Position numbers and translations under genes: made by a program
Shown: piece by piece, positions 12,200-43,662 of the stretch
Numbering within the stretch: the first letter of the stretch is position 1
How the letters are laid out: each line of letters opens with the position of its first letter
Source: Lachnospiraceae bacterium
GTDB lineage: Bacteria > Bacillota > Clostridia > Lachnospirales > Lachnospiraceae
Assembly (NCBI GenBank): GCA_017546025.1
Contig: JAFYYS010000035.1
Location: 27,809-91,808 of the forward strand
Length of the DNA stretch: 64,000 nt
Reading direction: 5' to 3'
Notes under the pieces: generated by a model
What the model was told of the DNA's origin: nothing
Databases searched by the model: none
Seen by the model: the letters and a program-made list of their open reading frames with translations, nothing else

Positions 12200-12311
12200 T
12201 TAACGGACTACGTTAGTAGAAAAACAGGGGTCCGAAAATTCGACAGAAGTAGTGTACTGAAAACGCTACTATATGAAAAATCGCACACGTACGCGTATAC
12301 GCGTATACGAG

Positions 12312-12341
12312 AAAAGGAGAGCCAAAACGGCCCTCCTTTTC
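12312..12341 (+). terminator. Terminator of the two-component operon
   Basis: AAAAGGAGAGCC / GGCCCTCCTTTT imperfect hairpin ending in a T-run. Confidence 0.6.
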
Positions 12342-12376
12342 ATTCGTTTATACGGAATATTCGCCGAATATGCACC

Positions 12377-12445
12377 AAATTACTCAAACTGTGTATAAAA
12401 CTACTCGAAACGGCGTTCCATTTTCCAAACACCCTTTGCTATAAT
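12377..12445 (+). promoter_or_regulatory. Candidate LytTR-type direct-repeat box pair plus extended -10 promoter of the surface-protein gene
   Basis: AAAtTACTCAAAC (12377-12389) and AAAcTACTCGAAAC (12398-12411). The TACTC cores are 21 nt apart. TGcTATAAT lies at 12437-12445 and there is no good -35. Confidence 0.35.
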
Positions 12446-12552
12446 TAGCATCGTTGGAAAATCTTTTTTCACTTCAAGGAAACTGTTATGATGATGCGAG
12501 GTTCCGAGAAGAACTAACCATTAAACCATTAAACCATTGGGAGGAACAAACA

Positions 12553-24131: not shown

Positions 24132-24215
24132 GCAGTTGTGGCGGAATTGGCATACGCGCATGATTCAGGTTCATGTCCATGTACTTGGGTGTGGGTTCAA
24201 GTCCCATCAACTGCA
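24132..24215 (+). tRNA. tRNA-Leu (anticodon CAG), type II with long variable arm
   Basis: Acceptor GCAGTTG/CAACTGC, anticodon stem CATGA/TCATG with loop TTCAGGT, T-arm GTGGG-TTCAAGT-CCCAT, discriminator A. No CCA is encoded. Confidence 0.9.
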
Positions 24216-24222
24216 CAAAAGA

Positions 24223-28523: not shown

Positions 28524-29507
28524 ATGATGACGGATGAACAGAAAATCGAACAGATTGAGGAATTTCGAACAAAAGCTTTAAGTAAAAAAAGATTCCTCGG
28601 GATTTGGATTTTTTTAGTTATCGTGACGGTGCTTGGCCTGACCGCTTTCCTGGCAGACAGAATGGGGGATGAGGGTTTTCCTGCCATTATGCTTTTATGG
28701 ATTCTGGGAGCCCTGAGTGTTACGGGATTGGGTATGGCAATTCACAATCTGAAAGGTGATTATTCGGAAGAGATAAAATGTTACCTGGTTGAGACCGCCG
28801 CAGAGGGGATGTTCGACAGTTTTTCCTACAGGCCGGAAGAAGGGTTCCTGGTGGATGATCTGTGCAATGCAGATATGATGAAAATCCGTGCCTGCAAAAC
28901 CGACGATATGATGGTCGGAGAATATAATGACGTGACGTTTGTCCATGGGGATGTAACGATTAATGCCGATAGTGAATCCCTCGGAGCGCCGTTTTACGGA
29001 ACCTGGACAGTATACTCGTTTTTGAAGCCGTTCACATCAGATTTACAGGTTACAACGGTAGAGATGCTGTCTCACAGCCGGGTAAACCGCACATTTTTCA
29101 CGAAGAAAGATGAGAAGAGGCATCTGTTTTTGACGGGAGACACGGAGTTTGACGACTTGTTCGCATGCTCCGGACAGGACGAGCAGGAAGCGATGACACT
29201 TCTGACGCCGGCAGTCAGAAAACGGCTGATTCGCATCTATCAGGACACCGGACTTCCGATGATTATCGGCTGGAAGGACAAGGAGCTGCATTTCATTACC
29301 GGAAATGCGCTTGCCCCGTTTGGTTATGAACTGGAAGCAACGCTTGATTATGAGGCCATGCTTGCGGAAACCAGAAGAAAACTCTATCTGATCAGAAGAG
29401 TTATAGAAGAACTGATCATGAGCCGCAGCGTCTTTTCGGAGTATGCGCTCGAGGAGTACTCGATGCCTGTTGATACAGAGCACGAAGAAGGATTGAGAAG
29501 ACAGTGA
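28524..29507 (+). CDS. Two-TM membrane protein, DUF3137-like, paralog 1 of 6
   Basis: - TM hairpin: FLGIWIFLVIVTVLGLTAFLA / FPAIMLLWILGALSVTGLGMAI.
- Shared blocks: CYLVETAAEGMFDSFSY, GEYNDVTF, GTWTVYSF, TGDTEFDDLFACSGQDEQEAMTLLTP.
- The DUF3137 label is from memory of the family consensus and is not verified. Confidence 0.85.
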   Translation: MMTDEQKIEQIEEFRTKALSKKRFLGIWIFLVIVTVLGLTAFLADRMGDEGFPAIMLLWILGALSVTGLGMAIHNLKGDYSEEIKCYLVETAAEGMFDSFSYRPEEGFLVDDLCNADMMKIRACKTDDMMVGEYNDVTFVHGDVTINADSESLGAPFYGTWTVYSFLKPFTSDLQVTTVEMLSHSRVNRTFFTKKDEKRHLFLTGDTEFDDLFACSGQDEQEAMTLLTPAVRKRLIRIYQDTGLPMIIGWKDKELHFITGNALAPFGYELEATLDYEAMLAETRRKLYLIRRVIEELIMSRSVFSEYALEEYSMPVDTEHEEGLRRQ

Positions 29508-30478
29508 GAACGGAAGAAGATATCAAACTGATTCAGAAAAGGGCGAAAAGAAGAAATATCATCTATTGGGGATGGATTGTCGCTCTGATTATCGCCGGCG
29601 CATGCATAACCGGTGCGTTGAACGATGCATTGGAGTGGGACCGCGCTTTTCCGTGGATTATGGTTCTTTGGGTTTTGTTTACCATGGTGATTCTGGGACT
29701 CGGTGTTGCGTTATTCGACCTTTCTTCGTCGTTTTCGAAGGATATCAAGAAGTATCTTGTGGAAACTGCTTCGGATGGGATGTTTGACAGCTTCTCCTAT
29801 AATCCGGACGAGGGTTTCAGCGTAGATGTGTTAGACAAAGCGGATATGATGAGGGGAGTCTATTCCTGCAGCACCGACGACATGATGCGCGGAGAATATA
29901 ATGATGTGAAGTTCTGCCGCGGGGATGTCAGCATTAATACGGGAAGCACCGTATCCAGTACGTTTCACGGATCGTGGACGCTGTATTCCTTTATGAAACC
30001 GTTCATTTCGGATCTGCAGGTCACGACGCAGGAGATGGTGGCGCACAGCCGTGTGAACCGCACAATCTTTACGAGAAAAGAAGAAAAGAGACATCTGTTC
30101 AAAACCGGTGATCCGGAGTTCGACAGCATATTTGTGTGTTCCGGACAGGATGAACAGGAGGCTATGACACTGCTGACGCCGACAGTCAGAAAACGGCTGA
30201 TCCGACTCTATCAGGATACCGGGCTTCCGATGATTGTCGGATGGAAGGACAACGAGCTGCATTTCATCACCGGAAATGCGCTTGCCCCGTACGGTTACAG
30301 AATCCATTCGAAGATGGATCTTGAGGCCATGGTCGCAGATACGAGAAGAAAGCTTTATCTGACCAGAAGAGTCATTGAAGAGCTGATTATGAGCCGCAGC
30401 GTCTTTTCGGAGTATGCGCTTGAGCAGTATTCGATGCCTGTTGATGCGGGACACGGAGAGGAATTAAGAAGACAGTGA
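29504..30478 (+). CDS. Two-TM membrane protein, DUF3137-like, paralog 2 of 6
   Basis: Its GTG start overlaps the paralog-1 stop (GTGA). It has the same architecture and, by eye, is roughly three-quarters identical to paralog 1 over the C-terminal ~200 aa. Confidence 0.85.
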   Translation: MRTEEDIKLIQKRAKRRNIIYWGWIVALIIAGACITGALNDALEWDRAFPWIMVLWVLFTMVILGLGVALFDLSSSFSKDIKKYLVETASDGMFDSFSYNPDEGFSVDVLDKADMMRGVYSCSTDDMMRGEYNDVKFCRGDVSINTGSTVSSTFHGSWTLYSFMKPFISDLQVTTQEMVAHSRVNRTIFTRKEEKRHLFKTGDPEFDSIFVCSGQDEQEAMTLLTPTVRKRLIRLYQDTGLPMIVGWKDNELHFITGNALAPYGYRIHSKMDLEAMVADTRRKLYLTRRVIEELIMSRSVFSEYALEQYSMPVDAGHGEELRRQ

Positions 30479-31464
30479 AGAATGATAAGACAGTAAGAAC
30501 TCTGGAAGAAATCAGAGGGCTGCAGAAAACCACCAGAGAAAACAGAAGGGTTTTGTTTTATGTCCTGCTGCTGTTGATACCCATGGATTTGGTTTTCACT
30601 TATTTGGCAGTGTCTTCGGGGGATATTGCGGGAACCTGTGTCCCGTTGATTGCTTTTTATATAATGACAGCAGCCACATTCTATGCCTGGGTAAGAGTTC
30701 CCCGGGAACTATACAGGGAATACAAGACATATCTTGTCAATAGCGCTGCAGACGGCCTGTTCGACGAGTACCAATACTTTCCGGACGGCTGTTTCGACCG
30801 GGAGGTGCTTGAAGAAACAAACCTGCTGGACCTTGAGGGTAAAAAGTTCGAGAGCAATGATTTCTTTGAGGGAACCTATCAGGGCGTCCGGTTTGCAAGA
30901 GCCGATATCGAAATCTATAATGGCCTTACGGGACGGTTTAAAAAGCAGTACTTCGGAAACTGGAACGTGTTCTCATTTTCCAAAGCCTCACCCCGTAAGA
31001 TTTGGATTTCGACAAGAAAACTGTTCACCCATTCGCGGCTGAGGACAGAGTTTATTCAGTTTTCGAACAACGGAGAAAACGGGATTACAACCGGCGATGA
31101 TTACTTTGACAGCCTGTTCTTCTGCGGCTGCGAGGATGAGCAGGCAGCCCGTGAACTCCTGACACCGCAGCTCATGAAGATTCTGTGCGGGTTTTATAAT
31201 AAGAACGGCTATCCGTTCATCGTGGCCTGGGTTGACGGCCGCCTGCACGTCATTGTAGAGGACAAAAAGGATACCGTGCATCCGTCCGTTGATATGGATG
31301 TCAACCCCGTGCTGGAGATTGAGAAAGCACGGGAAGATTTGAAATTTGTGTGCGACATCGTTGATGAACTGGTCATCGGTGACAAAGTATTCTCCGAATA
31401 TGCCATGTACGGTCAGGCCGTGGATTCGGAGCCTGTGATTGGGAAAGGGTTGAGAAGACAGTGA
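30475..31464 (+). CDS. Two-TM membrane protein, DUF3137-like, paralog 3 of 6
   Basis: GTGA start/stop overlap. Blocks: TYLVNSAADGLFDEYQY, GTYQGVRFARADI, GNWNVFSF, TGDDYFDSLFFCGCEDEQAARELLTP. Confidence 0.85.
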   Translation: MKNDKTVRTLEEIRGLQKTTRENRRVLFYVLLLLIPMDLVFTYLAVSSGDIAGTCVPLIAFYIMTAATFYAWVRVPRELYREYKTYLVNSAADGLFDEYQYFPDGCFDREVLEETNLLDLEGKKFESNDFFEGTYQGVRFARADIEIYNGLTGRFKKQYFGNWNVFSFSKASPRKIWISTRKLFTHSRLRTEFIQFSNNGENGITTGDDYFDSLFFCGCEDEQAARELLTPQLMKILCGFYNKNGYPFIVAWVDGRLHVIVEDKKDTVHPSVDMDVNPVLEIEKAREDLKFVCDIVDELVIGDKVFSEYAMYGQAVDSEPVIGKGLRRQ

Positions 31465-32576
31465 CTACGGAACAGGAACTCGAGAAGCGGCGAAAAACGG
31501 CAAGGCTTGGCAGATACGGCGGCACTGTATTACAATTGGCCGGAATCGTTTTGATGATGCTGGGACTCTTATATCTGTTTTTTGATTTCGCCGATTGGGA
31601 CCTTACAGCGAAAACGTGTCTTGTGCTGGCGGCGGCTGTCATTGCCATGATAGGGGGATATCTGCTTGAGAATCGTACACAAAAGAAGTACGAAAAGGAA
31701 TACAAGACCTACGTGATAGGCAGGGCCGCTCTGGGATTGTTTGATGAGTACGAGTTTCTGCCGGAGTGGGGATTCCCCAAGAAAGAAGTTAAGTCGAAAG
31801 GTCTGATTCGGATTAAGTACGGCTACAGAAGTGACACGCTTCTTAAGGGACAATACCATGATGTCGGATTTGCCCGCGCTGATTTCTCTATGAGACAGAA
31901 TCGGATTTCCGATATGAGAGTCAAAGGTTACTGGACCATCTTCACGTTTCCGAAGCCTTTTAAGAGCGACCTGCAGGTGTCCTGCGGGTTCATGCAGCAG
32001 GAGAGCGGAATCCGGCAGGGTCTTTTCGTTCCGAAAAAAGAGCGTCGCCACATCATTACGACGGGCAACGAAGAATTCGACAGGGAATTCACCTGCTCCG
32101 GCCAGGACACGGAAGAGGCTTTGTCTCTGCTGACGCCGGCGGTACGCAGAAAGCTGCTGTCGATGCGCTATATGAGGCGCAACGCCTTCGTCATGGGCTG
32201 GGTAAACCAGGAGCTTCATATGATTGTCATCAACGGAACGGACACGGCTCCGGCACCGGCCAAGGGAAAGCTTGATCTCGGTCAGGCGCTGCACCAGACG
32301 CAGGAAGAACTTCGCGTCATCTGTGAGATTATCGATGACATGATGATGAGCCGTAGCATTTTCGCCGATTATGTCATGGCGGAGATGGAAAATGTGATGA
32401 CTTCGCCACATGAAATCCCTGACGGCACCCTTCAGGAAGAAGACTACGACATTGTTCCGGCGAGCGAAGACTACGATATAACTTCGGTGAACGAAGACTA
32501 CGACATTGCTCCGGTAAACGAAGACTACGACGTCGATTTGCCGGAGGAAAAATACGAAATGCGTGGGAGTAATTAA
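31461..32576 (+). CDS. Two-TM membrane protein, DUF3137-like, paralog 4 of 6 (with an acidic EDYD repeat tail)
   Basis: GTGA overlap. Blocks: GQYHDVGFARADF, GYWTIFTF, TGNEEFDREFTCSGQDTEEALSLLTP. There is a C-terminal 4 x 9-aa EDYDIxPxx repeat. Confidence 0.85.
   Translation: MTTEQELEKRRKTARLGRYGGTVLQLAGIVLMMLGLLYLFFDFADWDLTAKTCLVLAAAVIAMIGGYLLENRTQKKYEKEYKTYVIGRAALGLFDEYEFLPEWGFPKKEVKSKGLIRIKYGYRSDTLLKGQYHDVGFARADFSMRQNRISDMRVKGYWTIFTFPKPFKSDLQVSCGFMQQESGIRQGLFVPKKERRHIITTGNEEFDREFTCSGQDTEEALSLLTPAVRRKLLSMRYMRRNAFVMGWVNQELHMIVINGTDTAPAPAKGKLDLGQALHQTQEELRVICEIIDDMMMSRSIFADYVMAEMENVMTSPHEIPDGTLQEEDYDIVPASEDYDITSVNEDYDIAPVNEDYDVDLPEEKYEMRGSN
32439..32546 (+). repeat. 4 x 27-nt tandem repeat inside paralog 4 (GAAGACTACGAC...)
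   Basis: Units start at 32439, 32466, 32493 and 32520. They encode EDYDIVPAS / EDYDITSVN / EDYDIAPVN / EDYDVDLPE. Confidence 0.9.
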
Positions 32577-32590
32577 CGAGGAGGAAGAAA

Positions 32591-33502
32591 ATGTATAACA
32601 ACGATTGGGAGCAACTGAACAAGACAAGAAAGCAGCTGGTATTACTCGGCATAATCGGAACGATCCTGCTTGTTGCGGGACTGATTCTGCCGATTGTATT
32701 CATGGCGAAGCATCCGCTTTTCTTTAATCCGTTCATGATTCTTTTCGGCATGGTTCCCGGAGCAATCTGCTGGCTGATTTTCGGCAAAGGCAACTCCGGC
32801 TACCGGAAGGATTACAAGGCGCTTGTGGTGAACCGAGCCGCGACCGGCATGTTTGACGAGTACAGCTACTACGCGGGCATGGGTTTTGATTACCGGGAGA
32901 TTCAGGCCACCGGCATCATGTACATGGGCAACCGGTATAAGAGTGAGGACCTCGTGGAAGGACGCTACAAGGGCGTTCCGTTCCGCCGTGCCGACATGTA
33001 TATCGCACAGCATACCTCGAGCGGTAAGAGCAGCCATACGACCGTATATCTGCGCGGAACGTGGATGATTTTCTCCTACAACAAAGCATTCGTTTCCGAT
33101 GTGCAGGTCATGTCCAAGGCTTTCGGGTTTTCCAATAAGAAGACGAGCCGCCTGTTTACGAGAAGCGGAGACCGCCGTCATAAGCTCGAGACGGAGGACG
33201 TGGAGTTCAACAACATGTTCAACGTGACCTGCCAGAACGATTCCGAAGCATTCTACCTGCTGACGCCCCGCGTCATGCAGATGCTGAAGCTGCTGCAGGC
33301 CGACTTCATGCATCCGTTCATGGTCGGATTTGTCAACAACGCCCTGCATATCGCCGTCAACACCGGCAAGGATTCGATGGAACCGTCGGTTTTCAAGGCA
33401 CTGAAGCCCGAGCTTGAGATTGAAAAGACCCGCCGCGAGCTGAAGGCAATCTGTAACGTCATCGACGCGCTGGCAATTGACCGGGATATTTTCAAGGAGT
33501 AA
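32591..33502 (+). CDS. Two-TM membrane protein, DUF3137-like, paralog 5 of 6
   Basis: ATG after AGGAGG, 14 nt after the paralog-4 stop. Blocks: GRYKGVPFRRADM, GTWMIFSY, TEDVEFNNMFNVTCQNDSEAFYLLTP. Confidence 0.85.
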   Translation: MYNNDWEQLNKTRKQLVLLGIIGTILLVAGLILPIVFMAKHPLFFNPFMILFGMVPGAICWLIFGKGNSGYRKDYKALVVNRAATGMFDEYSYYAGMGFDYREIQATGIMYMGNRYKSEDLVEGRYKGVPFRRADMYIAQHTSSGKSSHTTVYLRGTWMIFSYNKAFVSDVQVMSKAFGFSNKKTSRLFTRSGDRRHKLETEDVEFNNMFNVTCQNDSEAFYLLTPRVMQMLKLLQADFMHPFMVGFVNNALHIAVNTGKDSMEPSVFKALKPELEIEKTRRELKAICNVIDALAIDRDIFKE

Positions 33503-33506
33503 ACGG

Positions 33507-34535
33507 TTGAAAGACTATTCGATGATAACGCCCGAGGCATTGACCGAGGAGGCGCGGAAAATTGCAAAACACTCGGACAGAGCCCCGTTCATTGCGCTTG
33601 GGCAGCTCACCCTGCTGGGAATTCCGTTCCTGCTGTTGTGCATGGGAGTGCTGCCTCCAATCCCGTTTGTCGTGGCATTTGCCATCGCATTAATCCTTGT
33701 CGGCGTGACTGCCATATTCGGGCATGACCGGCAGAAGGAGTACGATGAGCGGCAGAAGGAACTGGTTGTTGCGTTCAAGTCGCTGGTTGTGAACCATGCC
33801 GCGCAGGAGCTGTTCCATCATTATTCCTATGACATGGAAAATGGCATCGCAGAGGAAGACATTCCGCTCAACGAAGTGCTGCCGTATTCCTACTTCGGAA
33901 GAAGCACGAATCTGCTGACCGGCTTCTACCGGGGTGTCGAATTCCGGCGCGCCGATCTTGAGGCAAGTGCAGCCTCGACGCATGTCAACTTTTATTCGAC
34001 GAACCGTGTCTTTCTCGGACAGTATATTGATTTCCCGTGTCCTGTGAAGTTTTCCTCGACGCTTTATATCTACACAAAGGACATGCTTGACGATATCGAG
34101 CGGAAGACCTTCCTGTATTCCGGGAACACGCGCGGGGAGATGTATTATGAAACGGGTGATGAGGCGTTTGATAAGAAATTCCGTTGCCTGACTACCGATC
34201 AAACTGAGGCGGAGACGCTTCTTACTCCGGAGTATGTCAGAAGCATTGTGAAGCTTTCAAACCTGATTAAGGATTGGTTTGTGATTGGCTTCAAAGAAGG
34301 CAGAATCTTTCTTTTGATTGACACCGGCACGGACCATCTGGAGCCGCCGAAATACCTCGGTTATATCGACAAAATGGACATGGATTACGAGATGGAGCGC
34401 GCGGTGAAAACGTTACAAACGGTGTGCGATGCCATTGACCGGCTGGCCCGTCCGAGCGAGGAGAAAACCCCGCCTGAGACAAATGTGATCGATGAACTTG
34501 AAAGCTACTGGAAAGAGGGAACACCGACCGTCTGA
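33507..34535 (+). CDS. Two-TM membrane protein, DUF3137-like, paralog 6 of 6 (most divergent)
   Basis: Blocks: GFYRGVEFRRADL and TGDEAFDKKFRCLTTDQTEAETLLTP. The start is uncertain: TTG 33507 lies 7 nt after AAGGAG, and ATG 33522 is the alternative. Confidence 0.75.
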   Translation: MKDYSMITPEALTEEARKIAKHSDRAPFIALGQLTLLGIPFLLLCMGVLPPIPFVVAFAIALILVGVTAIFGHDRQKEYDERQKELVVAFKSLVVNHAAQELFHHYSYDMENGIAEEDIPLNEVLPYSYFGRSTNLLTGFYRGVEFRRADLEASAASTHVNFYSTNRVFLGQYIDFPCPVKFSSTLYIYTKDMLDDIERKTFLYSGNTRGEMYYETGDEAFDKKFRCLTTDQTEAETLLTPEYVRSIVKLSNLIKDWFVIGFKEGRIFLLIDTGTDHLEPPKYLGYIDKMDMDYEMERAVKTLQTVCDAIDRLARPSEEKTPPETNVIDELESYWKEGTPTV

Positions 34536-34565: not shown

Positions 34566-34594
34566 TTGACAAGCGGCGGGAAAGGTCTTATAAT
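34566..34594 (+). promoter_or_regulatory. Consensus sigma-A promoter (TTGACA-17 nt-TATAAT)
   Basis: TTGACA at 34566-34571, a 17-nt spacer, and TATAAT at 34589-34594. Confidence 0.8.
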
Positions 34595-34600
34595 GTGCCT

Positions 34601-34886
34601 AATTTTACAACTTCATATCGTTCAAAGGCTGTGACGAAGACGGTCTCGGGAACGCATTTTCAGAGAGCCGGTGGTTGGTGTGAACCGGTATTGCAGAACG
34701 AATCGACCTATCCCTTCCGAGCTGAAGGTCTGAACCCCTTGTGGAAAGTAAGAACTTCCGTGATTGCCGCGTCAAGGCATAGGATTTGTTGGAATCCGAA
34801 GAGTGGCGTACAGTGTACGCAAGTTGAGTGGTACCGCGGGTGAAAGGCTCGTCTCAAACGTTCGTTTGGGGCGGGCTTATTTTATT
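34601..34886 (+). promoter_or_regulatory. T-box riboswitch leader (tRNA-sensing transcription attenuator)
   Basis: - Stem I has a GA/K-turn (GUGACGAAG...CUUCCGAGC), an AGAGAG bulge (34662-34667) and a distal loop GGUUGGUGUGA.
- The T-box sequence AGUUGAGUGGUACCGCGGG lies at 34822-34840, with a UGGU bulge.
- The antiterminator is GAG[UGGUACC]GCGGG...CUCGUCUC.
- It competes with a 13-bp terminator (34847-34876) followed by UUAUUUUAUU. Confidence 0.85.
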
Positions 34887-34946
34887 GCCTCAGGGAACAC
34901 AACCTTTCAGAGAATCACTCAACAAAAAACAAAGGAGAGTAAAACA

Positions 34947-37211
34947 ATGGGAGACATGGATCTGAAGCTTAAGGAAGTCGCCGCACGTATCCGCGAGATG
35001 CGTGAGATCGCAGGCTTTACCGAAGGCGAGATGGCAGACAAGACGGATGTCAGCGTGGAAGAGTATGTGGCTTATGAGGCCGGCGAAACGGATATGCCGT
35101 TTACGTTCATTCATAAGTGCTCGCTCGCATTTGACGTCGAAATGAGCGCTTTGCTTGAAGGCCATACGGCAAAGCTTACCAGCTACACCGTAACGAGAAA
35201 GGGCGAAGGTCAGATCACTTCCGAAGAGGAAGGCATCCTGATCAAGAACCTTGCTTCCAACTTTAAGAAGAGACTCGGTGAGCCCTACTGGGTTCGCTAT
35301 GAATACTCCGCCGAGCAGCAGAAGAAGCCGATTCATCTGACCAAGCACAGCGGTCAGGAATTCGATATCGTCATGAAGGGCTGCCTGAAGGTTCAGGTCG
35401 GTGAGCACACCGAAATCCTGCACGAGGGCGACAGCATCTTCTACAACAGCTCGACGCCGCACGGCATGATTGCCATCAACGATCAGGACTGTACCTTCAT
35501 CGCAGTCGTACTGCCCGGTGAGGATGTCGGCGAGAAGGAAATCGTCGATACGCTTGTGGAAGGCCGTACCGCGAAGAAGAGCTTCGTCTGTGACAAATTC
35601 ATCAAGACTGTCGAGGACGAAAAGGGCCGCCTGAAGTCCATCGATTTCGTAAACGAAGAGAAGTTCAACTTCGCCTATGATGTTGTTGACGCCATCGCGA
35701 AGAAGAATCCCGAGAAGCTTGCGATGATTCATCTGGACCGCGACAAGAACGAGAGACGCTTCACATTCCTTGACATGAGTAAGAAGAGCGGCCAGGCCGC
35801 AAACTACTTCAAGTCCCTGGGCATCGAGCCCGGCGACCGCGTCATGCTTGTATTGAAGCGCCATTACCAGTTCTGGATCAGCATGCTTGCGCTTCATAAG
35901 ATCGGCGCAATCGCAATCCCGGCTACTTATCAGCTTCAGGAGCATGACTTTGAGTACCGTTTCAAGTCCGCAGGCGTTAAGGCAATCGTTTGTACCGGCG
36001 ACGGTGATACCGCCAACCAGGTTGATCTTGCGGCACCGCGCTGTGAGACACTGATCCACAAGATCTGTGTCGGCGCTCCGAGAGAAGGCTGGCGCAACTT
36101 CGATGAAGAGTATGTGATGTACAGCTCGCATTTCGACCGCGTCGAGAACAGCCCGTGCGGTTCCGACCGTTTCATCATGTTCTTCACCTCCGGCACGACC
36201 GGTTATCCGAAGATTGCGTGCCATTCCTACAAGTACGCGCTCGGTCATTATGTAACCGCCAAGTACTGGCATCAGGTTGAGCCTGACGGCCTGCACCTGA
36301 CCATTTCCGATACCGGCTGGGGTAAAGCGCTTTGGGGCAAGCTGTACGGCCAGTGGCTGTGCGAAGCACCCGTTTTCGTATATGACTTCGACCGCTTCCA
36401 TGCAGAGGACATCCTGCCGCTGTTTGCACAGTACCATATCACGACGTTCTGCGCACCGCCCACGATGTACCGCATGCTGATCAAGGAAGACATCAGCAAA
36501 TACGACCTCAGCTCGATTGTGCATGCAACGACCGCCGGTGAGGCCCTTAACCCCGAGGTTTACAACGTCTTCAAGGAGAAGACCGGTCTCCGCATCCACG
36601 AGGGCTTCGGTCAGACCGAGACAACGCTTGTCATCGGTAACCTGTACGGCGAGAAGCGCAAGCTCGGATCCATGGGTAAGCCTACGCCGCAGTATCATGT
36701 CGACATCCTCGATCCGGACGGCAAGCCCGTACCGGTCGGCGAGAACGGCGAGATCTGCATCTACACAAACGACAAGACGCCCTGCGGACTGTTCCGCGGC
36801 TACTATAACGATCCCGAGCGCACGAAGGAAGCGTGGCATGACGGCATCTATCATACCGGCGACGTCGCGTGGAAGGACGAGGACGGCTTCTACTGGTATG
36901 TCGGCCGTATCGACGACGTCATCAAGTCGTCCGGCTACCGTATCGGACCGTTCGAAATCGAAAGCGTCATCATGGAACTTCCGTATGTGCTTGAGTGCGG
37001 TGTCAGCGCCGCCCCCGACCCGATCCGCGGCCAGGTTGTAAAGGCAAGCATCGTATTGACAAAGGGTACACAGCCCTCCGATGAGCTCAAGAAGGAAATC
37101 CAGGATTACGTTAAGAAGCACACAGCACCTTACAAGTACCCGCGTATCGTTGTCTTCATGGATGAACTTCCGAAGACCATCAGCGGCAAGATTCAGAGAA
37201 ACAAACTGTAA
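34947..37211 (+). CDS. Fusion protein: XRE-type HTH plus cupin domain (N-terminal ~190 aa) fused to an AMP-forming acyl-CoA synthetase (ACSM/MbcS-like)
   Basis: - N-terminus: KEVAARIREMREIAGFTEGEMADKTDVSVEEYVAYEAG (HTH), then a cupin (HSGQEFDIVMKG...GDSIFYNSSTPHG).
- The remainder has FFTSGTTGYPK (A3), TAGEALN, EGFGQTET, YHTGD and SSGYRIGPFEIES adenylation motifs.
- It is one uninterrupted ORF. ATG 34947 follows AAAGGAGAG. Confidence 0.85.
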   Translation: MGDMDLKLKEVAARIREMREIAGFTEGEMADKTDVSVEEYVAYEAGETDMPFTFIHKCSLAFDVEMSALLEGHTAKLTSYTVTRKGEGQITSEEEGILIKNLASNFKKRLGEPYWVRYEYSAEQQKKPIHLTKHSGQEFDIVMKGCLKVQVGEHTEILHEGDSIFYNSSTPHGMIAINDQDCTFIAVVLPGEDVGEKEIVDTLVEGRTAKKSFVCDKFIKTVEDEKGRLKSIDFVNEEKFNFAYDVVDAIAKKNPEKLAMIHLDRDKNERRFTFLDMSKKSGQAANYFKSLGIEPGDRVMLVLKRHYQFWISMLALHKIGAIAIPATYQLQEHDFEYRFKSAGVKAIVCTGDGDTANQVDLAAPRCETLIHKICVGAPREGWRNFDEEYVMYSSHFDRVENSPCGSDRFIMFFTSGTTGYPKIACHSYKYALGHYVTAKYWHQVEPDGLHLTISDTGWGKALWGKLYGQWLCEAPVFVYDFDRFHAEDILPLFAQYHITTFCAPPTMYRMLIKEDISKYDLSSIVHATTAGEALNPEVYNVFKEKTGLRIHEGFGQTETTLVIGNLYGEKRKLGSMGKPTPQYHVDILDPDGKPVPVGENGEICIYTNDKTPCGLFRGYYNDPERTKEAWHDGIYHTGDVAWKDEDGFYWYVGRIDDVIKSSGYRIGPFEIESVIMELPYVLECGVSAAPDPIRGQVVKASIVLTKGTQPSDELKKEIQDYVKKHTAPYKYPRIVVFMDELPKTISGKIQRNKL

Positions 37212-38581
37212 TGAAGCATCCGAATTATGACATTCCCGGGATTCCGGAAGGATACGAGGTATTCTTCCGGATGACCCGTAAGTGCAGACTCGAAACGGTT
37301 GATGAAGCAGACGAAGACGAAGATTCCATGAAAGACTGGAAGTATGACCGTCTCCACAACTACATCAAACAGCGTGACGGAAAAGGAAACGTATATGTTT
37401 ATCGCATCCGGGAGGACAATACCTGTACCTGCGAGCGTTGGTTCATGAAGGACGGCGCAAGGTACTGCGAGCCCGGCGCTGTGTTTGATCCCGGTATCGA
37501 GATTGTGTTTCAGGAAACGGACCGGGAAAGCTGGGAGTATGATGAGCGCGGCAACTGCGTGACATTTATCACAAAAGGGAAAGACCGCTGGCTGAACACC
37601 TATGATGCAAAGAACCGGGTCGTTTCGGAAAAAAGGTATTTTTCCGACGGGCTTTTATGGGCCGATAAGGGATATGCCTACAATGAGGACGGCACCCTGC
37701 GTGAGTATTATGAGGACATGCTCGATATTCAGAACGGGCACGGCGATTATCATACGATGCATTACAAAAAGACGGTTCCCGAATACGACAGTACGGGCCG
37801 GACGGTTTCCGAGCATTCGTATGACCGGGAAGGCAAGCTGATCGGGCAGATGTATTGGGAGCCGGGCGGGAAGGTTCAGATCTCGACAAAGAACCAGTTC
37901 GAATATTGGCAGGTCCGCTCAAGAATTGAGCATGACGACGAAGGAAGAGTCATCTCGGACGACTTTGAGCTGAACGGAAAGCCGCAGTCAAGGACCGAAT
38001 ACGAGTACCGTGACGACGGCAGCTACACCGAGCGCAGGTACATTGCAATCATGGAGAGAGACAATGAGCTGCTGCTCCGTGAAGAAAAGACGTTTGATAA
38101 GGCCGGCAGGAGGACCGCCTGGATTGAATACGGTTACAACAGTAAGAGAGTATACGAAGCCTTTTATCAGGAGTATGACGAAGAAGGCAATCTGACCAGA
38201 ACGGTTCGTAAGACAATAACCGGGACAAAGCCGCAAAAGGAAGAAACCTATATCGTTCTTTTCGGCACGGTCGGAGGCTTCAAACACGACCGTCTGCGGG
38301 TTAAGGAATACGAGATCCGGGACGGGAAGGCAGGAAACGTCACCGAATACAAGTATTTCTTCCCGGATGAGAACACCGTGATGCAGTTCAGCATCAAAAA
38401 CGGCGAAGTCCGGTTCGTGGAAATCTATGAATATGACAGCTACGGAAACCTGCTTGCCCGGTACTCGGCGAGTGGCTCGGGGAGGTACGGCAAAGCCTTC
38501 GAATACACGCCTTTTGTTGCGCCCAAGGGGCGGTTCACGAAAGAGGACCGCGATGAAGAGCACCACAAGGTGGTGAGTTAA
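37211..38581 (+). CDS. Cytoplasmic protein with YD/RHS-like repeats (no signal peptide or TM)
   Basis: Its start overlaps the upstream stop (TAATG). Repeats: WEYDERGNCV, YDAKNRVV, YNEDGTLR, YDSTGRTV, YDREGKLI, HDDEGRVI, YDEEGNLT, YDSYGNLL. Confidence 0.75.
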   Translation: MKHPNYDIPGIPEGYEVFFRMTRKCRLETVDEADEDEDSMKDWKYDRLHNYIKQRDGKGNVYVYRIREDNTCTCERWFMKDGARYCEPGAVFDPGIEIVFQETDRESWEYDERGNCVTFITKGKDRWLNTYDAKNRVVSEKRYFSDGLLWADKGYAYNEDGTLREYYEDMLDIQNGHGDYHTMHYKKTVPEYDSTGRTVSEHSYDREGKLIGQMYWEPGGKVQISTKNQFEYWQVRSRIEHDDEGRVISDDFELNGKPQSRTEYEYRDDGSYTERRYIAIMERDNELLLREEKTFDKAGRRTAWIEYGYNSKRVYEAFYQEYDEEGNLTRTVRKTITGTKPQKEETYIVLFGTVGGFKHDRLRVKEYEIRDGKAGNVTEYKYFFPDENTVMQFSIKNGEVRFVEIYEYDSYGNLLARYSASGSGRYGKAFEYTPFVAPKGRFTKEDRDEEHHKVVS

Positions 38582-38650
38582 GCCGCTAAGGCAGATAGAG
38601 GTTGCATTTTCCCGTGATAAAGGGTATAGTTATTAAGTTAAGGTGATGTT

Positions 38651-39322
38651 ATGGATTTTAAGCGTTTGGTGCTCTTTGCGGGGCATTACGGCAGCGGAAA
38701 AACAAATATTGCGGTCAATGTGGCAATCGACCTTAAAAAAGAGGGGAAGAATGTTGTCATTGCGGACCTCGATATCGTGAATCCGTATTACCGGACGAAG
38801 GACAGCGAGCAGGAGCTTGAGGCGGCGGGAATTCCGCTGATCAGTTCCGAATACGCGAATTCGAACGTCGATGTACCGGCACTTCCGCAGGCCCTTTATT
38901 CCCTGGTCGATCAGAAGGACCGTTACGGGATCATGGATATCGGCGGCGACGACCGCGGCGCTTTGGCGCTCGGGCGGTATGCTCCGGCAATCCTTGAGGA
39001 GAACAACTACGAAATGCTCCTCGTCATCAACAAGTATCGTCCGCTGACTCCGGATGCGGCAAGCACCCTGGAGGTCATGCGTGAGATAGAAATCGCGGGC
39101 GGGATTCCGTTCACCGGGATTGTGAACAACTCAAATCTCGGAAGGGAGACGACCGCGGAGGATGTCATCAAAACCCACGCCTACGCCATGGAAATGGCTG
39201 AGGACACGGGGCTGCCGCTTCGGATGACGACCGTTAAGGAAGACATCGCGGAAGAGGTGGCGAAAGTAATTCCGAATGTCGTACCGCTAAGGTTACAGAA
39301 CAAACGGCTTTGGAATGACTGA
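38651..39322 (+). CDS. P-loop NTPase, MinD/CooC-like (SIMIBI class)
   Basis: Walker A FAGHYGSGKTN at residues 9-19, VIADLD switch-like motif, MDIGGDD Walker B-like motif. Confidence 0.6.
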   Translation: MDFKRLVLFAGHYGSGKTNIAVNVAIDLKKEGKNVVIADLDIVNPYYRTKDSEQELEAAGIPLISSEYANSNVDVPALPQALYSLVDQKDRYGIMDIGGDDRGALALGRYAPAILEENNYEMLLVINKYRPLTPDAASTLEVMREIEIAGGIPFTGIVNNSNLGRETTAEDVIKTHAYAMEMAEDTGLPLRMTTVKEDIAEEVAKVIPNVVPLRLQNKRLWND

Positions 39323-39383
39323 GACGTACATGCATGGCATTTTCCATTACGGAAGATGTGATTTAAGTTACAGGAGGTAAGAA

Positions 39384-39593
39384 ATGAACAAAGTAACGTT
39401 CAACACGGACCTTTGTAAGGGCTGCGGCCTCTGCGTGGCAGCCTGCCCGAAGAAGATTCTTCGGATGTCGGAGACGGTCATCAATGCGAAGGGCCATCAT
39501 CCGGCGGAAATGACCGACCAGTCCCAGTGTATCGCGTGTGCATTCTGCGCAACGATGTGCCCGGATTGCGTAATTACGGTGGAAAGGGGTTAA
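39384..39593 (+). CDS. 2-oxoacid:ferredoxin oxidoreductase delta subunit (2x[4Fe-4S] ferredoxin)
   Basis: 69 aa with CKGCGLCVAACP and CIACAFCATMCP cluster motifs. Confidence 0.9.
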   Translation: MNKVTFNTDLCKGCGLCVAACPKKILRMSETVINAKGHHPAEMTDQSQCIACAFCATMCPDCVITVERG

Positions 39594-39597
39594 GAGC

Positions 39598-40665
39598 ATG
39601 GCAGATAAAGTATTGATGAAGGGCAATGAAGCCATTGCCGAAGCCGCCATTATGGCCGGCTGCCGATTCTATTTCGGCTATCCGATTACGCCCCAGACCG
39701 AGGTTGCCGCATACATGGCAAAGCGTATGCCCAAGATCGGCGGAACCTTCCTTCAGGCAGAGAGCGAAATTGCAGCAATTAACATGTGTATCGGTGTTGC
39801 TTCTACCGGTAAGAGAGTTATGACGAGCTCCTCAAGCCCCGGAATCTCCCTTAAGGAAGAGGGCATCAGCTACATGGCAGGATGCGACCTTCCGGCGCTG
39901 ATTGTTAACGTTGAGCGTGGCGGCCCGGGTCTCGGCGGCATTCAGCCTTCCCAGTCCGACTATTTCCAGGCTACCAGAGGCGGCGGACACGGTGACTATC
40001 ACCTCTTCGTTGTTGCTCCGGCAAGCGTACAGGAGATGGTAAGCCTTACCGCTCATGCATTTAACGTAGCTGAAAAGTACCGCGTTCCCGCGATGCTTCT
40101 TGCCGACGGTACGCTCGGTCAGATGATGGAGCCTGTTTCGATTGAAGGCATCACCGTTGAGGACCATGACAAGTCCTGGGCTCTCACCGGAACGGACTGC
40201 AAGAGAAAGCACAACATCATCAACTCCCTGTCCCTGCTTCCCGAGGAACTCGAGCAGTGGAACCTGGAGCGTTATAAGAGATACGAGAAGATCGAAGAGA
40301 ACGAGCCCATGTGGGAAGAGTACATGACCGAGGACGCAGACATCTGTGTTGTTGCATTCGGTATCGCATCCCGCGTAAGCCGTAACGCCATCAAGGCTGC
40401 ACGTGCACAGGGCATCAAGGTCGGCATGATCCGTCCGATTACCCTTTGGCCGTTCCCGAAGAAGCCTCTTGCCGCTATCGCTGACAAGGTTAAGGCTTTC
40501 GTAACCGTTGAGCTTAACATGGGCCAGATGGTTGAGGACGTTGAGCTTGCAACCCGCTGCAAGAAGCCGGTTCTCATGGCGAACCGCGTAGGCGGCTGCA
40601 TCCCGACTCCCGAGCAGGTACTTGCTCAGATTGTCGAAGCCAATAAGTTAGGAGGTGCACAGTAA
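39598..40665 (+). CDS. 2-oxoacid:ferredoxin oxidoreductase alpha subunit (VorB/KorA-type)
   Basis: MKGNEAIAEAAIMAGCRFYFGYPITPQTE... is the typical OFOR alpha N-terminus. 355 aa. Confidence 0.9.
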   Translation: MADKVLMKGNEAIAEAAIMAGCRFYFGYPITPQTEVAAYMAKRMPKIGGTFLQAESEIAAINMCIGVASTGKRVMTSSSSPGISLKEEGISYMAGCDLPALIVNVERGGPGLGGIQPSQSDYFQATRGGGHGDYHLFVVAPASVQEMVSLTAHAFNVAEKYRVPAMLLADGTLGQMMEPVSIEGITVEDHDKSWALTGTDCKRKHNIINSLSLLPEELEQWNLERYKRYEKIEENEPMWEEYMTEDADICVVAFGIASRVSRNAIKAARAQGIKVGMIRPITLWPFPKKPLAAIADKVKAFVTVELNMGQMVEDVELATRCKKPVLMANRVGGCIPTPEQVLAQIVEANKLGGAQ

Positions 40666-41417
40666 TGGGTGAGATTGTATTTCAGAAACCGAAGTCACTG
40701 TGTGACGTTCCGCTTCATTATTGCCCCGGCTGCACGCACGGTATCGTGCACCGTCTCGTTGCGGAAGCAATCGACGAGCTCGGCATTGAGGGCAAGACCA
40801 TCGGCGTAGCCAGCGTAGGCTGCTCCGTATTTACCTACAACTATTTCGAGTGTGATATGGTTCAGGCCGCACACGGACGTGCTCCGGCTGTTGCTACCGG
40901 CGTGAAGAGAAGCGATCCTTCTAAGATTGTTTTCACGTACCAGGGCGACGGCGACCTTGCTTCCATCGGTACTGCTGAGACCGTTCATTCGGCTGCACGT
41001 AACGAGAACATCACCATCATCTTCATCAACAACGCCATTTACGGCATGACCGGCGGTCAGATGGCTCCTACCTCCCTTCCGGGGCAGGTAACCCAGACTT
41101 CTCCTTACGGCCGTGACGTTAACACCGTAGGTTATCCGGTACGCATCTGCGAGATGCTTTCGCAGCTCGAGGGTCCGACGTATCTGGAGCGTGTTGCCGT
41201 GAACAACGTAAAGAACGTTAAGGCAGCCAAGAAGGCCATCAAGAAGGCTTTCGAGAACCAGGTAGAAGGCAAGGGCTTCTCCCTCATCGAAGTTGTTTCC
41301 ACCTGCCCGACCAACTGGGGCAAGACGCCTGAGAAGGCTATGGAGTGGCTCGAGGAGAACATGCTTCCTTACTATCCGCTCGGCGTTTACAAAGACAAGA
41401 CGAAGGAGGAGAAGTAA
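40665..41417 (+). CDS. 2-oxoacid:ferredoxin oxidoreductase beta subunit (TPP-binding)
   Basis: YCPGCTHGI and GDGDLASIG TPP motif, then NNAIYGMTGGQ. The start overlaps the alpha stop. Confidence 0.9.
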   Translation: MGEIVFQKPKSLCDVPLHYCPGCTHGIVHRLVAEAIDELGIEGKTIGVASVGCSVFTYNYFECDMVQAAHGRAPAVATGVKRSDPSKIVFTYQGDGDLASIGTAETVHSAARNENITIIFINNAIYGMTGGQMAPTSLPGQVTQTSPYGRDVNTVGYPVRICEMLSQLEGPTYLERVAVNNVKNVKAAKKAIKKAFENQVEGKGFSLIEVVSTCPTNWGKTPEKAMEWLEENMLPYYPLGVYKDKTKEEK

Positions 41418-41418
41418 A

Positions 41419-41958
41419 ATGGCACAGACCGGTATGCTTTTTGCAGGTTTCGGCGGACAGGGCATTCTGTTCTCCGGCAAATTCTGCGCTTACGACGGCT
41501 TGATTTCCGATAAGCAGGTCAGCTGGCTTCCTTCCTACGGCCCTGAGATGCGCGGAGGTACCGCAAGCTGCAGCGTTGTATTCAGCGATGAAATCATCGG
41601 CTCCCCGATTGTTACGAACCCTGATATCCTCGTTGTCATGAACCTTCCTTCCCTTGACAAATACGAAGCTTCTGTCGTTCCCGGAGGTAAGATTTTCTAT
41701 GATTCGACCCTCATCGGACGCAAGGTTGCAAGAACCGACGTAACGGCTTATGCCGTTCCCGCCACGAAGCTTGCTGCCGACAACGGAATGCCTACGCTTG
41801 CCAACATGATTCTCGTAGGTAAGATGATCAAGGAAACCGGCATCATCTCGACCGAGAACATCGACAAGATCATTGACAAGATTGTAAGTGCCCGCCATCA
41901 GGACCTCAAGGAACTGAACGCTAAGGCAATCAAGATGGGATTTGACTACGCTGAGTAG
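41419..41958 (+). CDS. 2-oxoacid:ferredoxin oxidoreductase gamma subunit
   Basis: [16 protein letters not shown] and [11 protein letters not shown] motifs. ATG 41419 follows GGAGGAG. Confidence 0.9.
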
Positions 41959-41978: not shown

Positions 41979-42010
41979 CCGCACAACCGGTAACGGCTGT
42001 GCGGTTTTTT
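41979..42010. terminator. Bidirectional terminator shared by the oxidoreductase operon and the convergent BI-1 gene
   Basis: CCGCACA / TGTGCGG stem with AAAAAAA upstream and TTTTTT downstream. Confidence 0.8.
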
Positions 42011-42028: not shown

Positions 42029-42739
42029 TCAGTTATTCCAGCGATAGGATTCGATATACATGCTGAACAGCACAATCGGAACCCTGATGATGAAAAATGC
42101 GACGTCCAAATAGATGTCGACAGCACAGTCGACGGCGTGCTTCACCGTTTTGGAGAATACCTGCGAATGCGCCATGTCATAGAGGAAGCAGAAGCAGATG
42201 AAGATTGCCGCGAACCATGCCCAGATGCTTGTATCCCTGCTGACCAGCGCAACAATCGTGATGGCAGCAGCCAGTCCGATGCCGCCGATACCGGAAAGCG
42301 TGAGAAGATTATCGCACTGCTCCGGACGTAAGGTTGCGAACAGGGTTACCGCTGCCGTCACGCATGTGACAATGATGACGGTCTGCAAAGCGACCTCCGC
42401 GCCGGACTTTACGGAGAAGAGGTCAATGACGGAAGCGGCAATGATTCCGATCGGAGCCACAATCATATAATAGGCAATGCAGACAACAACCGTATTCGGG
42501 ACCTCGGTCGCGAGAACGACACCCGAGAGCCAGACTGCAATGTAGATGAAAATCAGGACGATCGGGTTCAGGTCCTTCGTGTAATCGTGCGCGAGGACAA
42601 GCAGAACCCAGTTGATGATTAATCCGATGACCACGATGCCGCCCTGAATCAGGTTGAAGGTCCCGGCAGAAACATCTTTTGCGAATACCGAATAATCGTT
42701 CAGTCTTTCCTGCTTTCTTCCCGTCTCAAAAAGTTTCAT
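42029..42739 (-). CDS. BAX inhibitor-1/YccA-family membrane protein
   Basis: About 7 TM helices and a C-terminal VDCAVDIYLDVAFFIIRV motif typical of BI-1/YccA. ATG 42739 follows GGGGGTG. Confidence 0.8.
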   Translation of the reverse strand: MKLFETGRKQERLNDYSVFAKDVSAGTFNLIQGGIVVIGLIINWVLLVLAHDYTKDLNPIVLIFIYIAVWLSGVVLATEVPNTVVVCIAYYMIVAPIGIIAASVIDLFSVKSGAEVALQTVIIVTCVTAAVTLFATLRPEQCDNLLTLSGIGGIGLAAAITIVALVSRDTSIWAWFAAIFICFCFLYDMAHSQVFSKTVKHAVDCAVDIYLDVAFFIIRVPIVLFSMYIESYRWNN

Positions 42740-42975
42740 TTCATCACCCCCTGACGATATGTTACCATAGCATTTTCCTAAGGTCAATCAGGGGAGGGCA
42801 GTACTGTGTGGATTGTTAAGAGAATGTTAAATCAACGGTAAATGAGATTGACACAGGCGGGGCGTTGTGGTAATATCTCTTTCAAGCACAGAGACAACAT
42901 ATCGATATGAACGGCAGCGGTTAATGCCCTGCCGAAACGGTGCAGCGTGGTTCCTGCGGAAAGGAGCAATGAAAC

Positions 42976-43662
42976 ATGTCAAGCTTTGCAGCAAACAGAA
43001 GAGAAGAGAGATTAAACGCAGTTTACAGCGTTTCGGAACTGATCACAGAGCAGAAATACAACATTGTATTATGCGGCGCAGTTTTGTGGGGATTAATTAT
43101 CAATTTCATTTTATGTATCACGGTCGGTAATGTTTACGAATATATCAATCCGATCCCGTTCTTCATCGGGTATTTCGTATTGGTAATTGCCGGAAGCCTT
43201 ATCGCATCGAAATCGGACAATGCCATGGTTTCCTTCATCGGATACAACATGATTGTACTTCCGATCGGACTGGTTGTCTCGACCGTCGTGGAGCTTTACG
43301 GCGGTGTGCAGTCGACCGTCGTGGCCGAGGCCTTCCTGATTACGATGTGCGTGACCGCAGTGATGGCGCTGTTCGCCGTCACGAAGCCCGATCTTGTGGC
43401 AACGATCGGCGGGATACTGTTTCCGTGCCTGATCGGTCTGATTGTCGCGGAAGTGGTCGTGCTGCTGCTCGGCTATAATAACAACATATTCTCCTGGATC
43501 GGAGCGGCGCTGTTCAGCCTTTATATCGCTTATGATATTTACCGCTCGCAGCAGTTCACCAAGACGGTGGACAATGCCGTGGACTGTGCGGTGGACATCT
43601 ACCTCGACATCACCAACCTCTTCCTGAGAATCCTGAGAATTGTTGCAAACAGCGACGACTGA
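42976..43662 (+). CDS. BAX inhibitor-1/YccA-family membrane protein (divergent paralog)
   Basis: Same architecture, with a C-terminal VDCAVDIYLDITNLFLRILRI motif. Confidence 0.85.
   Translation: MSSFAANRREERLNAVYSVSELITEQKYNIVLCGAVLWGLIINFILCITVGNVYEYINPIPFFIGYFVLVIAGSLIASKSDNAMVSFIGYNMIVLPIGLVVSTVVELYGGVQSTVVAEAFLITMCVTAVMALFAVTKPDLVATIGGILFPCLIGLIVAEVVVLLLGYNNNIFSWIGAALFSLYIAYDIYRSQQFTKTVDNAVDCAVDIYLDITNLFLRILRIVANSDD

Follow-up and report, generated by a model that had tools for sequence, protein, structure and literature searches.

A putative tRNA(Ile)-gated operon for isoleucine synthesis from 2-methylbutyrate in a Lachnospiraceae bacterium

Branched-chain volatile fatty acids are required by, or stimulate, many cellulolytic and other Firmicutes of the gut and rumen, and labelling work since the 1960s has shown their conversion to valine, leucine and isoleucine. 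To our knowledge, the genes for this salvage in gut and rumen Firmicutes, and the regulation that acts on them, are largely unassigned. Here, we describe a seven-gene operon behind a T-box leader RNA in a 64,000-nucleotide stretch of DNA from a Lachnospiraceae bacterium (assembly GCA_017546025.1, contig JAFYYS010000035.1, positions 27,809 to 91,808 of the forward strand; the window), which we read from its sequence, at a probability of about 0.7, as an operon for tRNA(Ile)-gated synthesis of isoleucine from exogenous 2-methylbutyrate. In rumen methanogens, 2-methylbutyrate and isovalerate serve to make isoleucine and leucine (review, PMC10658910).

The kind of RNA element, the families of the enzymes and the physiology of the pathway are all known already; what appears to be new is their wiring, together with a sensor-like XRE-cupin module fused to the ligase, a P-loop NTPase conserved in the cluster and a near-orphan repeat protein. 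The T-boxes of Bacillus ileS and ilv-leu belong to the same RNA family as the leader described here and share with it a specifier codon in Stem I, a UGGN bulge and competing antiterminator and terminator folds; here, however, genes for an acyl-coenzyme A (CoA) ligase and a ferredoxin oxidoreductase are regulated, the base after the specifier is C, and the 5' strand of the Specifier Loop is shortened. For the ligase, the informative relative is MacsMa of Methanosarcina acetivorans (PDB 3ETC), whose preferred substrate, with which the full two-step reaction is completed, is 2-methylbutyrate; acids of C3 to C8, propionate among them, are adenylated by MacsMa, and the acyl-adenylates of many other acids are unsuitable for the CoA step (PMC10455477). 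The two ligases have in common a catalytic part that is 55% identical over 521 residues (646 bits), the conserved pocket tryptophan of MacsMa (W441 in the ligase here) and a glycine that separates two classes of the ligases described below, and the 2-methylbutyrate preference of MacsMa agrees with the Ile specifier found here. In contrast, MacsMa has no N-terminal XRE-cupin module, and the searches made gave no T-box or oxidoreductase context for it.

A further relative is MbcS of Staphylococcus aureus, a short branched-chain acyl-CoA synthetase that prefers isobutyrate and 2-methylbutyrate (PMC13584741). MbcS (NF047394) is the best NCBIfam match of the catalytic part, yet the score of 444 bits is about half the family cut-off of 850 bits, and, judged by homology, the ligase is related to MbcS and is not its orthologue; MbcS serves fatty-acid synthesis, as opposed to amino-acid synthesis, and has no fused sensor module. 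2-Oxoisovalerate:ferredoxin oxidoreductase (VOR) and the related four-subunit 2-oxoacid:ferredoxin oxidoreductases share with the enzyme encoded here the delta-alpha-beta-gamma set, the thiamine pyrophosphate (TPP) and Fe-S motifs and an alpha subunit that passes the VorB model, whereas the genes here are joined to that of a conserved P-loop NTPase and placed under a tRNA sensor, with a substrate that homology does not fix. In the XRE-cupin class of regulators, an XRE DNA-binding domain is combined with a cupin signal-sensing domain (PMC12724383). The helix-turn-helix (HTH) and cupin architecture of the stand-alone members, which are about 185 aa long (DbuR, PauR), is common to the module described here, which differs in being fused to an enzyme and in having putative DNA binding, with no conserved operator palindrome seen in the promoter regions compared.

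The T-box leader and the genes behind it

The leader is preceded by a sigma-70 promoter (TTGACA-17 nt-TATAAT, window positions 34566..34594, on the + strand like the leader and all seven genes) that matches the consensus at 12/12 positions. The T-box leader RNA itself (34622..34859) was identified by the Rfam covariance model RF00230 with 102.7 bits against a gathering score of 93 (E=1.5e-21), with the model complete from 1 to 219, and it is the single T-box leader that Rfam finds within the window. Its parts comprise Stem I, with the kink-turn (K-turn), the Specifier Loop, the AGAGA bulge and the distal loop, followed by Stem III and the antiterminator. Aligned to the covariance model, the leader has AUC, a codon for isoleucine, as its specifier (34710..34712), and the T-box sequence (34829..34838; UGGUACCGCG in the model alignment) contains the UGGU bulge for pairing with the ACCA 3' end of the tRNA; TGGT is present in every parsed T-box of the cluster family. 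The leader terminator hairpin, then UUAUUUUAUU, lies at 34845..34878 and has a 15-pair stem with 7 G-C pairs, a U-run and a fold energy of -32.9 kcal/mol (z=-2.6), and its stem reuses the 3' half of the antiterminator, so that the two folds are mutually exclusive. The Stem I of T-boxes relies on non-canonical motifs, and because of this dependence the failure of minimum-free-energy folding to reproduce the T-box fold of Stem I is uninformative. A full, standard transcriptional T-box with an Ile specifier stands directly ahead of the operon.

The seven genes are co-oriented and begin with that of an AMP-forming ligase fused to an HTH-cupin module (34947..37211, 754 aa), which is followed by genes for an RHS/YD-like repeat protein (37211..38581, 456 aa; weak Pfam RHS_repeat match) and a SIMIBI-class P-loop NTPase with the Walker A motif GHYGSGKT (38651..39322, 223 aa; weak Pfam CbiA and ParA/NUBPL matches). 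The four oxidoreductase subunits come next: delta, which is 2x[4Fe-4S] ferredoxin-like (39384..39593, 69 aa; Fer4 families, two CxxCxxCxxxCP motifs), alpha (39598..40665, 355 aa; Pfam POR_N and PFOR_II), the TPP-binding beta (40665..41417, 250 aa; TPP_enzyme_C, with a CxxC...C...C cysteine pattern) and gamma (41419..41958, 179 aa; Pfam POR family, E=1.4e-33). There is a one-base overlap at two of the junctions, and the widest spacings, 69 and 61 nt, are those on either side of the NTPase gene.

A preliminary description of this DNA, made from the sequence alone, had proposed a T-box followed by seven genes, namely those of a synthetase, a repeat protein, a P-loop ATPase and the delta, alpha, beta and gamma subunits; the Rfam match and the gene families at 34947-41958 bear this out, and all seven assignments fit. 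It had also seen no intervening terminator hairpins and a strong bidirectional terminator at the end of the unit, and the scans agree with both statements. The terminator-like hairpins inside the operon are weak ones, about as many as chance would give (12 against an expected 10.1), and a consensus scan of the + strand from 34594 to 41392 turned up nothing that resembles a promoter. The closing bidirectional intrinsic terminator (41979..42010) consists of an A-run, a G+C-rich hairpin (41979-42004) and a T-run (42005-42010), and folds at -30.3 kcal/mol (z=-5.4), with 0/200 shuffles folding as well. From this arrangement we infer co-transcription of all seven genes.

Specifiers and gene order in related loci

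One genome per species (GTDB) was scanned with an alignment of the ligase, which gave at least 587 matching stretches, and the best 80 loci were kept (numbered with the prefix L). Gene order in these loci was mapped by tblastn, and specifiers were parsed by a pattern rule that takes the conserved GAG[CT] in the strand of the K-turn as its anchor. All of the parsed T-boxes ahead of the orthologous ligase have the specifier ATC (68/68), with flanking bases that vary; in the covariance-model alignment of L025 the specifier is AUC, then A. The leaders of L081 and L051 were missed by the pattern rule, and both are T-boxes by Rfam.

In 50 cases, a T-box with a Val specifier (GUA or GUC) is found ahead of a paralogous HTH-cupin ligase of about 762 aa, usually in the same cluster as the Ile T-box (for example L013 12298-14918, and the L025 T-box at 12298-12534). 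A T-box with a Leu specifier (CUC or CUG) is found in 22 cases ahead of a divergent LeuA-like gene, which scores below the isopropylmalate synthase cut-offs (for example L037 4839-9639 and L013 19343-21034). In this Leu unit, often located beside the Ile/Val cluster, the next gene often encodes a second kind of ligase, an AMP-binding one fused to a xylose-isomerase-like TIM barrel (817 aa in all), and an Amidohydro_2 protein (amidohydrolase) is encoded after it. Nearly every Ile, Val or Leu T-box of the related loci comes with its own near-consensus promoter (at least 10/12 matches). The cluster is conserved, and its Ile, Val and Leu T-boxes are paired with distinct genes.

The commonest order in the related loci is T-box(Ile)-ligase 1-T-box(Val)-ligase 2-[aminotransferase]-NTPase-delta-alpha-beta-gamma-[aminotransferase]. 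A complete delta-alpha-beta-gamma set is reached downstream in 49/79 related loci, and a branched-chain aminotransferase (NF009897, 485 bits against a cut-off of 307) adjoins the oxidoreductase in 41/49 of these; the family of loci is large and widespread in gut and rumen Clostridia. A MACS-type ligase, the SIMIBI NTPase and the four-subunit 2-oxoacid:ferredoxin oxidoreductase form the conserved core. Ten related loci have the simpler layout of the window, in which a lone Ile-gated ligase gene is followed at once by those of the NTPase (or aminotransferase) and the oxidoreductase, and in five of the ten (L069, L071, L074, L062 and L075) about 7-65 nt separate ligase and NTPase. Among the best 80 loci, the closest relatives are Lachnospiraceae with the window layout (L002 and L003, 80% identity); L001, at 95% identity, ends within the ligase gene. 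The hosts of the cluster belong to Lachnospiraceae, Oscillospiraceae, Acutalibacteraceae, Christensenellaceae and Ruminococcus, and were sampled from human, ruminant, horse, rabbit and chicken.

A T-box-like element was also observed in L043 (about 12340-12600), between the Ile-gated ligase and the NTPase, with no second ligase and a specifier parsed as GCA. This element may be a remnant left after loss of a Val-type ligase, or a parsing error.

Predicted pathway and alternative readings

The catalytic part of the ligase matches Pfam AMP-binding with 217.8 bits and AMP-binding_C with 78.4 bits and, with its close match to MacsMa, belongs to the medium-chain acyl-CoA synthetases of MacsMa/ACSM type in the ANL superfamily. 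When Ile-gated ligases (n=65) are compared with Val-gated ligases (n=39), the catalytic domain contains a single fixed difference, Gly459 in the former as opposed to Ala in the latter, at a site within a DTGW-G/A-K motif where Gly is also found in MacsMa. This difference of one methyl group between the residues matches the difference of one carbon between 2-methylbutyrate and isobutyrate, which suggests a role in substrate choice for a residue whose location in the pocket is putative. The preliminary description had considered substrate specificity unreadable from the sequence; this statement was wrong, as the AUC specifier and the homology to MacsMa together point to isoleucine and 2-methylbutyrate. 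Taken with the Gly459 signature, the specifier and the homology lead us to infer that the enzyme is a 2-methylbutyrate-CoA ligase.

For the oxidoreductase, all four subunits have the expected Pfam domains, and TPP and Fe-S motifs are present in the set. The alpha subunit passes the NF005507 'VorB' model with 537 bits against a cut-off of 399, and its best PDB matches are 1YD7, 8YS5 and 6N2N. AMP-forming ligases are effectively irreversible towards the CoA ester, and induction by uncharged tRNA makes sense only for synthesis. Because of these two properties, and because linkage to an aminotransferase fits synthesis, the oxidoreductase is predicted to act in the direction of carboxylation.

In the proposed mechanism, the T-box leader would be transcribed from the strong constitutive promoter, and, as long as tRNA(Ile, anticodon GAU) carries its amino acid, transcription would end at the leader terminator (34845-34878). 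When tRNA(Ile) is uncharged, its anticodon would pair with the AUC specifier and its free ACCA end with the UGGU bulge, which would stabilise the antiterminator and allow RNA polymerase to enter the seven genes. The ligase would then convert 2-methylbutyrate, ATP and CoA to 2-methylbutyryl-CoA, which the VOR-type oxidoreductase would reductively carboxylate, with CO2 and reduced ferredoxin, to 3-methyl-2-oxopentanoate. Isoleucine would finally be formed by a branched-chain aminotransferase, presumably encoded elsewhere in this genome, the gene for which is located inside the cluster in most relatives. Salvage by reductive carboxylation under a T-box had been put forward in the preliminary description, and it is supported by the AUC specifier, the Val T-box paralogue, the aminotransferase linkage (41/49) and the MacsMa homology.

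Several observations weigh against this reading. In the leader, the base that follows the specifier (34713) is C, not the usual purine, as it also is in 25/68 of the orthologous leaders (A in 42/68), and the 5' strand of the Specifier Loop (34636-34642) is shortened to ACG, without the consensus AGUA. The pattern rule used for the specifiers was checked against covariance-model alignments for the window, L013 and three L025 leaders only, and four second-position leaders were parsed oddly and taken as failures of the rule. The window contains no aminotransferase gene, either next to the operon, where most related clusters have one, or elsewhere, and no Val-type ligase. The VOR-named model is passed by the alpha subunit only, and the best NCBIfam models for beta, gamma and delta are generic or 2-oxoglutarate-type, all matched below cut-off, so that the substrate assigned to the oxidoreductase rests on context. 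The commonest architecture also places the oxidoreductase behind the Val T-box as opposed to the Ile T-box, and its coupling to the Ile T-box is therefore lineage-specific.

Another way to reach isoleucine would start from propionate, in which case the ligase would activate propionate and the oxidoreductase would be a 2-oxobutyrate synthase that feeds the ordinary ilv pathway. The synthesis of isoleucine from propionate by anaerobes is established physiology, and such a route is equally compatible with an Ile specifier. Propionate is also among the acids adenylated by MacsMa, but the CoA step of MacsMa was completed with 2-methylbutyrate and many other adenylates were unsuitable for it (PMC10455477). 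In most relatives, moreover, the oxidoreductase is located behind a Val T-box and a paralogous ligase, and valine can be made in this way only from isobutyrate, so that the enzyme must accept branched acyl-CoAs; Gly in the Ile type as opposed to Ala in the Val type suggests a larger pocket, which is the opposite of what a choice between propionate and isobutyrate would predict. For these reasons, we consider the propionate route unlikely.

It also seems improbable that these genes serve to prime the fatty acids of the membrane with branched acyl-CoA, or that they ferment branched-chain amino acids oxidatively. VOR-type enzymes are reversible and act oxidatively in some organisms, which would suit fermentation, but induction by uncharged tRNA(Ile) would then destroy isoleucine exactly when it is scarce, and an AMP-forming ligase would waste ATP. 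A role in lipid synthesis is favoured by the match to MbcS, which is reported to supply branched acyl-CoA for fatty-acid synthesis in S. aureus (PMC10026030), yet this match is far under the cut-off (444 against 850 bits). The aminotransferase and the set of Ile, Val and Leu T-boxes fit amino-acid supply.

Finally, it is very unlikely that the T-box controls the ligase alone and that the oxidoreductase genes are an independent unit adjacent by chance: the 69 and 61 nt gaps around the NTPase gene, a weak hairpin at 39337-39359, the recent insertion of a repeat-protein gene that could bring its own signals, and three loci with a T-box and ligase but no oxidoreductase nearby (L041, L057 and L067) would allow it, but the scan of the + strand from 34594 to 41392 gave nothing promoter-like, the U-run of the hairpin is poor and its stem has just 3 G-C pairs, two of the gene junctions have overlapping start and stop codons, and the ten window-like relatives each carry one ligase gene immediately ahead of those for the NTPase (or aminotransferase) and the oxidoreductase, with about 7-65 nt between ligase and NTPase in five of them.

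Two further genes of the operon differ in their conservation. The P-loop NTPase gene is found upstream of delta in 57 related loci and is a conserved accessory gene of the cluster, and its product is annotated as hypothetical in the sources. Its AlphaFold model (predicted local distance difference test, pLDDT, 77) gave signal recognition particle GTPases, FlhF and the ATPase-type HypB as the best Foldseek matches, at a template modelling (TM) score of about 0.55; these are generic SIMIBI relatives only, and a specific function for the NTPase was dropped. By analogy with the SIMIBI proteins that serve metalloenzymes, the NTPase may aid assembly or maturation of the Fe-S and TPP enzyme. The repeat-protein gene, on the other hand, was found in 0/80 related loci, and among 5.8 billion proteins the repeat protein matched two clusters, neither of them informative on function: one is 99% identical and named Lachnospiraceae bacterium, and the other is 53% identical and is encoded at the matching place of a related operon, L081. 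The repeat protein is a lineage-specific insertion, a near-orphan that stands outside the conserved system, which the preliminary description had not recognised.

In the neighbourhood of the operon, six tandem DUF3137 paralogues (303-371 aa) are encoded at window positions 28524-34535 (+), directly upstream of the T-box promoter, and a six-gene DUF3137 array is likewise located ahead of the operon in L081. A second T-box, suggested at 29636 by a TGGNACCRYG motif, was rejected, as the motif lies inside a DUF3137 open reading frame and has no Rfam match even at E<=0.01. Downstream of the operon, positions 42029-42787 (-) encode a hydrophobic protein that is probably located in the membrane and matches no Pfam family, and positions 42976-43662 (+) encode a Bax1-I family membrane protein. 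The sole tRNA gene within the window is that of tRNA-Leu(CAG), at 24132-24216 (+).

The fused XRE-cupin module and the wider regulon

An N-terminal module, comprising an XRE-type HTH and a cupin domain, occupies residues 1 to about 230 of the ligase and was absent from the preliminary description. Its Pfam matches to HTH_19 and HTH_3 are both below the gathering score, and that to Cupin_2 is above it. Among 1.84 billion representative proteins searched, 493 match the module at E<=1e-10. Many of these are stand-alone proteins of 183-190 aa, to which residues 1 to about 190 show 31-43% identity. A PDB sequence search with the N-terminal module gave nothing significant. The structure model of the module is poor (pLDDT 61, predicted TM score 0.43), and Foldseek matches of this model to HppE, HEPD and the 1Y9Q regulator, at a TM score of about 0.3, back the two-domain architecture only.

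Within the cupin, H134, E138 and H172 are shared by 104/104 ligases, and at position 130 the Ile type has His where the Val type has Glu. The XRE-cupin module accounts for 12 of the 13 positions that tell Ile-type from Val-type ligases, and it is because of this concentration, together with the switch at position 130, that class-specific recognition by the module is suggested; candidate ligands are the 2-oxo acid, the amino acid and the free acid. A visual comparison of 68 promoter regions, aligned on the -35, did not reveal a shared palindromic operator, and these regions have in common only strong promoters and A/T-rich upstream tracts. In L007, L013, L020, L030, L034, L036 and L044, and not in the window, the Ile T-box promoter has its -10 enclosed by inverted repeats of the form GTGT...ACAC; these repeats could be candidate operators of the fused HTH module, or a by-product of an extended -10.

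With regard to the regulon, the T-box targets in two comparative surveys (PMC2494555; PMC3766115 and its supplementary regulon tables) include no acyl-CoA ligase or 2-oxoacid:ferredoxin oxidoreductase group. The full-text literature searched likewise contained no T-box linked to such a ligase or oxidoreductase, though Vitreschak et al. 2008 and Meng et al. 2010 could mention one. The preliminary description had not known this wiring as described, and these searches are in line with that statement.

Tentatively, the window may be one branch of a widespread, undescribed regulon of gut and rumen Clostridia, in which Ile, Val and Leu T-boxes would each control a unit of their own, all units would feed one shared oxidoreductase and aminotransferase, the specifier would label the substrate of each ligase, and the Ile- and Val-type ligases would be 'trigger enzymes'. 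As part of the same tentative reading, the XRE-cupin module, with its invariant His/Glu/His, would sense the cognate 2-oxo acid or amino acid; if true, such sensing would add a second control, exerted at the level of the protein, to that of the tRNA sensor.

The locus and its relatives offer a testable gene set for the salvage of branched-chain acids, made up of one ligase per acid, a single VOR-type oxidoreductase, an aminotransferase and an accessory NTPase, in which the T-box specifier would be a built-in label predicting the acid that is activated by each ligase, and in which the Gly/Ala switch and the fused sensor module are targets for experiment. The known T-box regulon, which covers synthetases, de novo biosynthesis and transporters, would thereby be widened to include a CO2-fixing salvage route.

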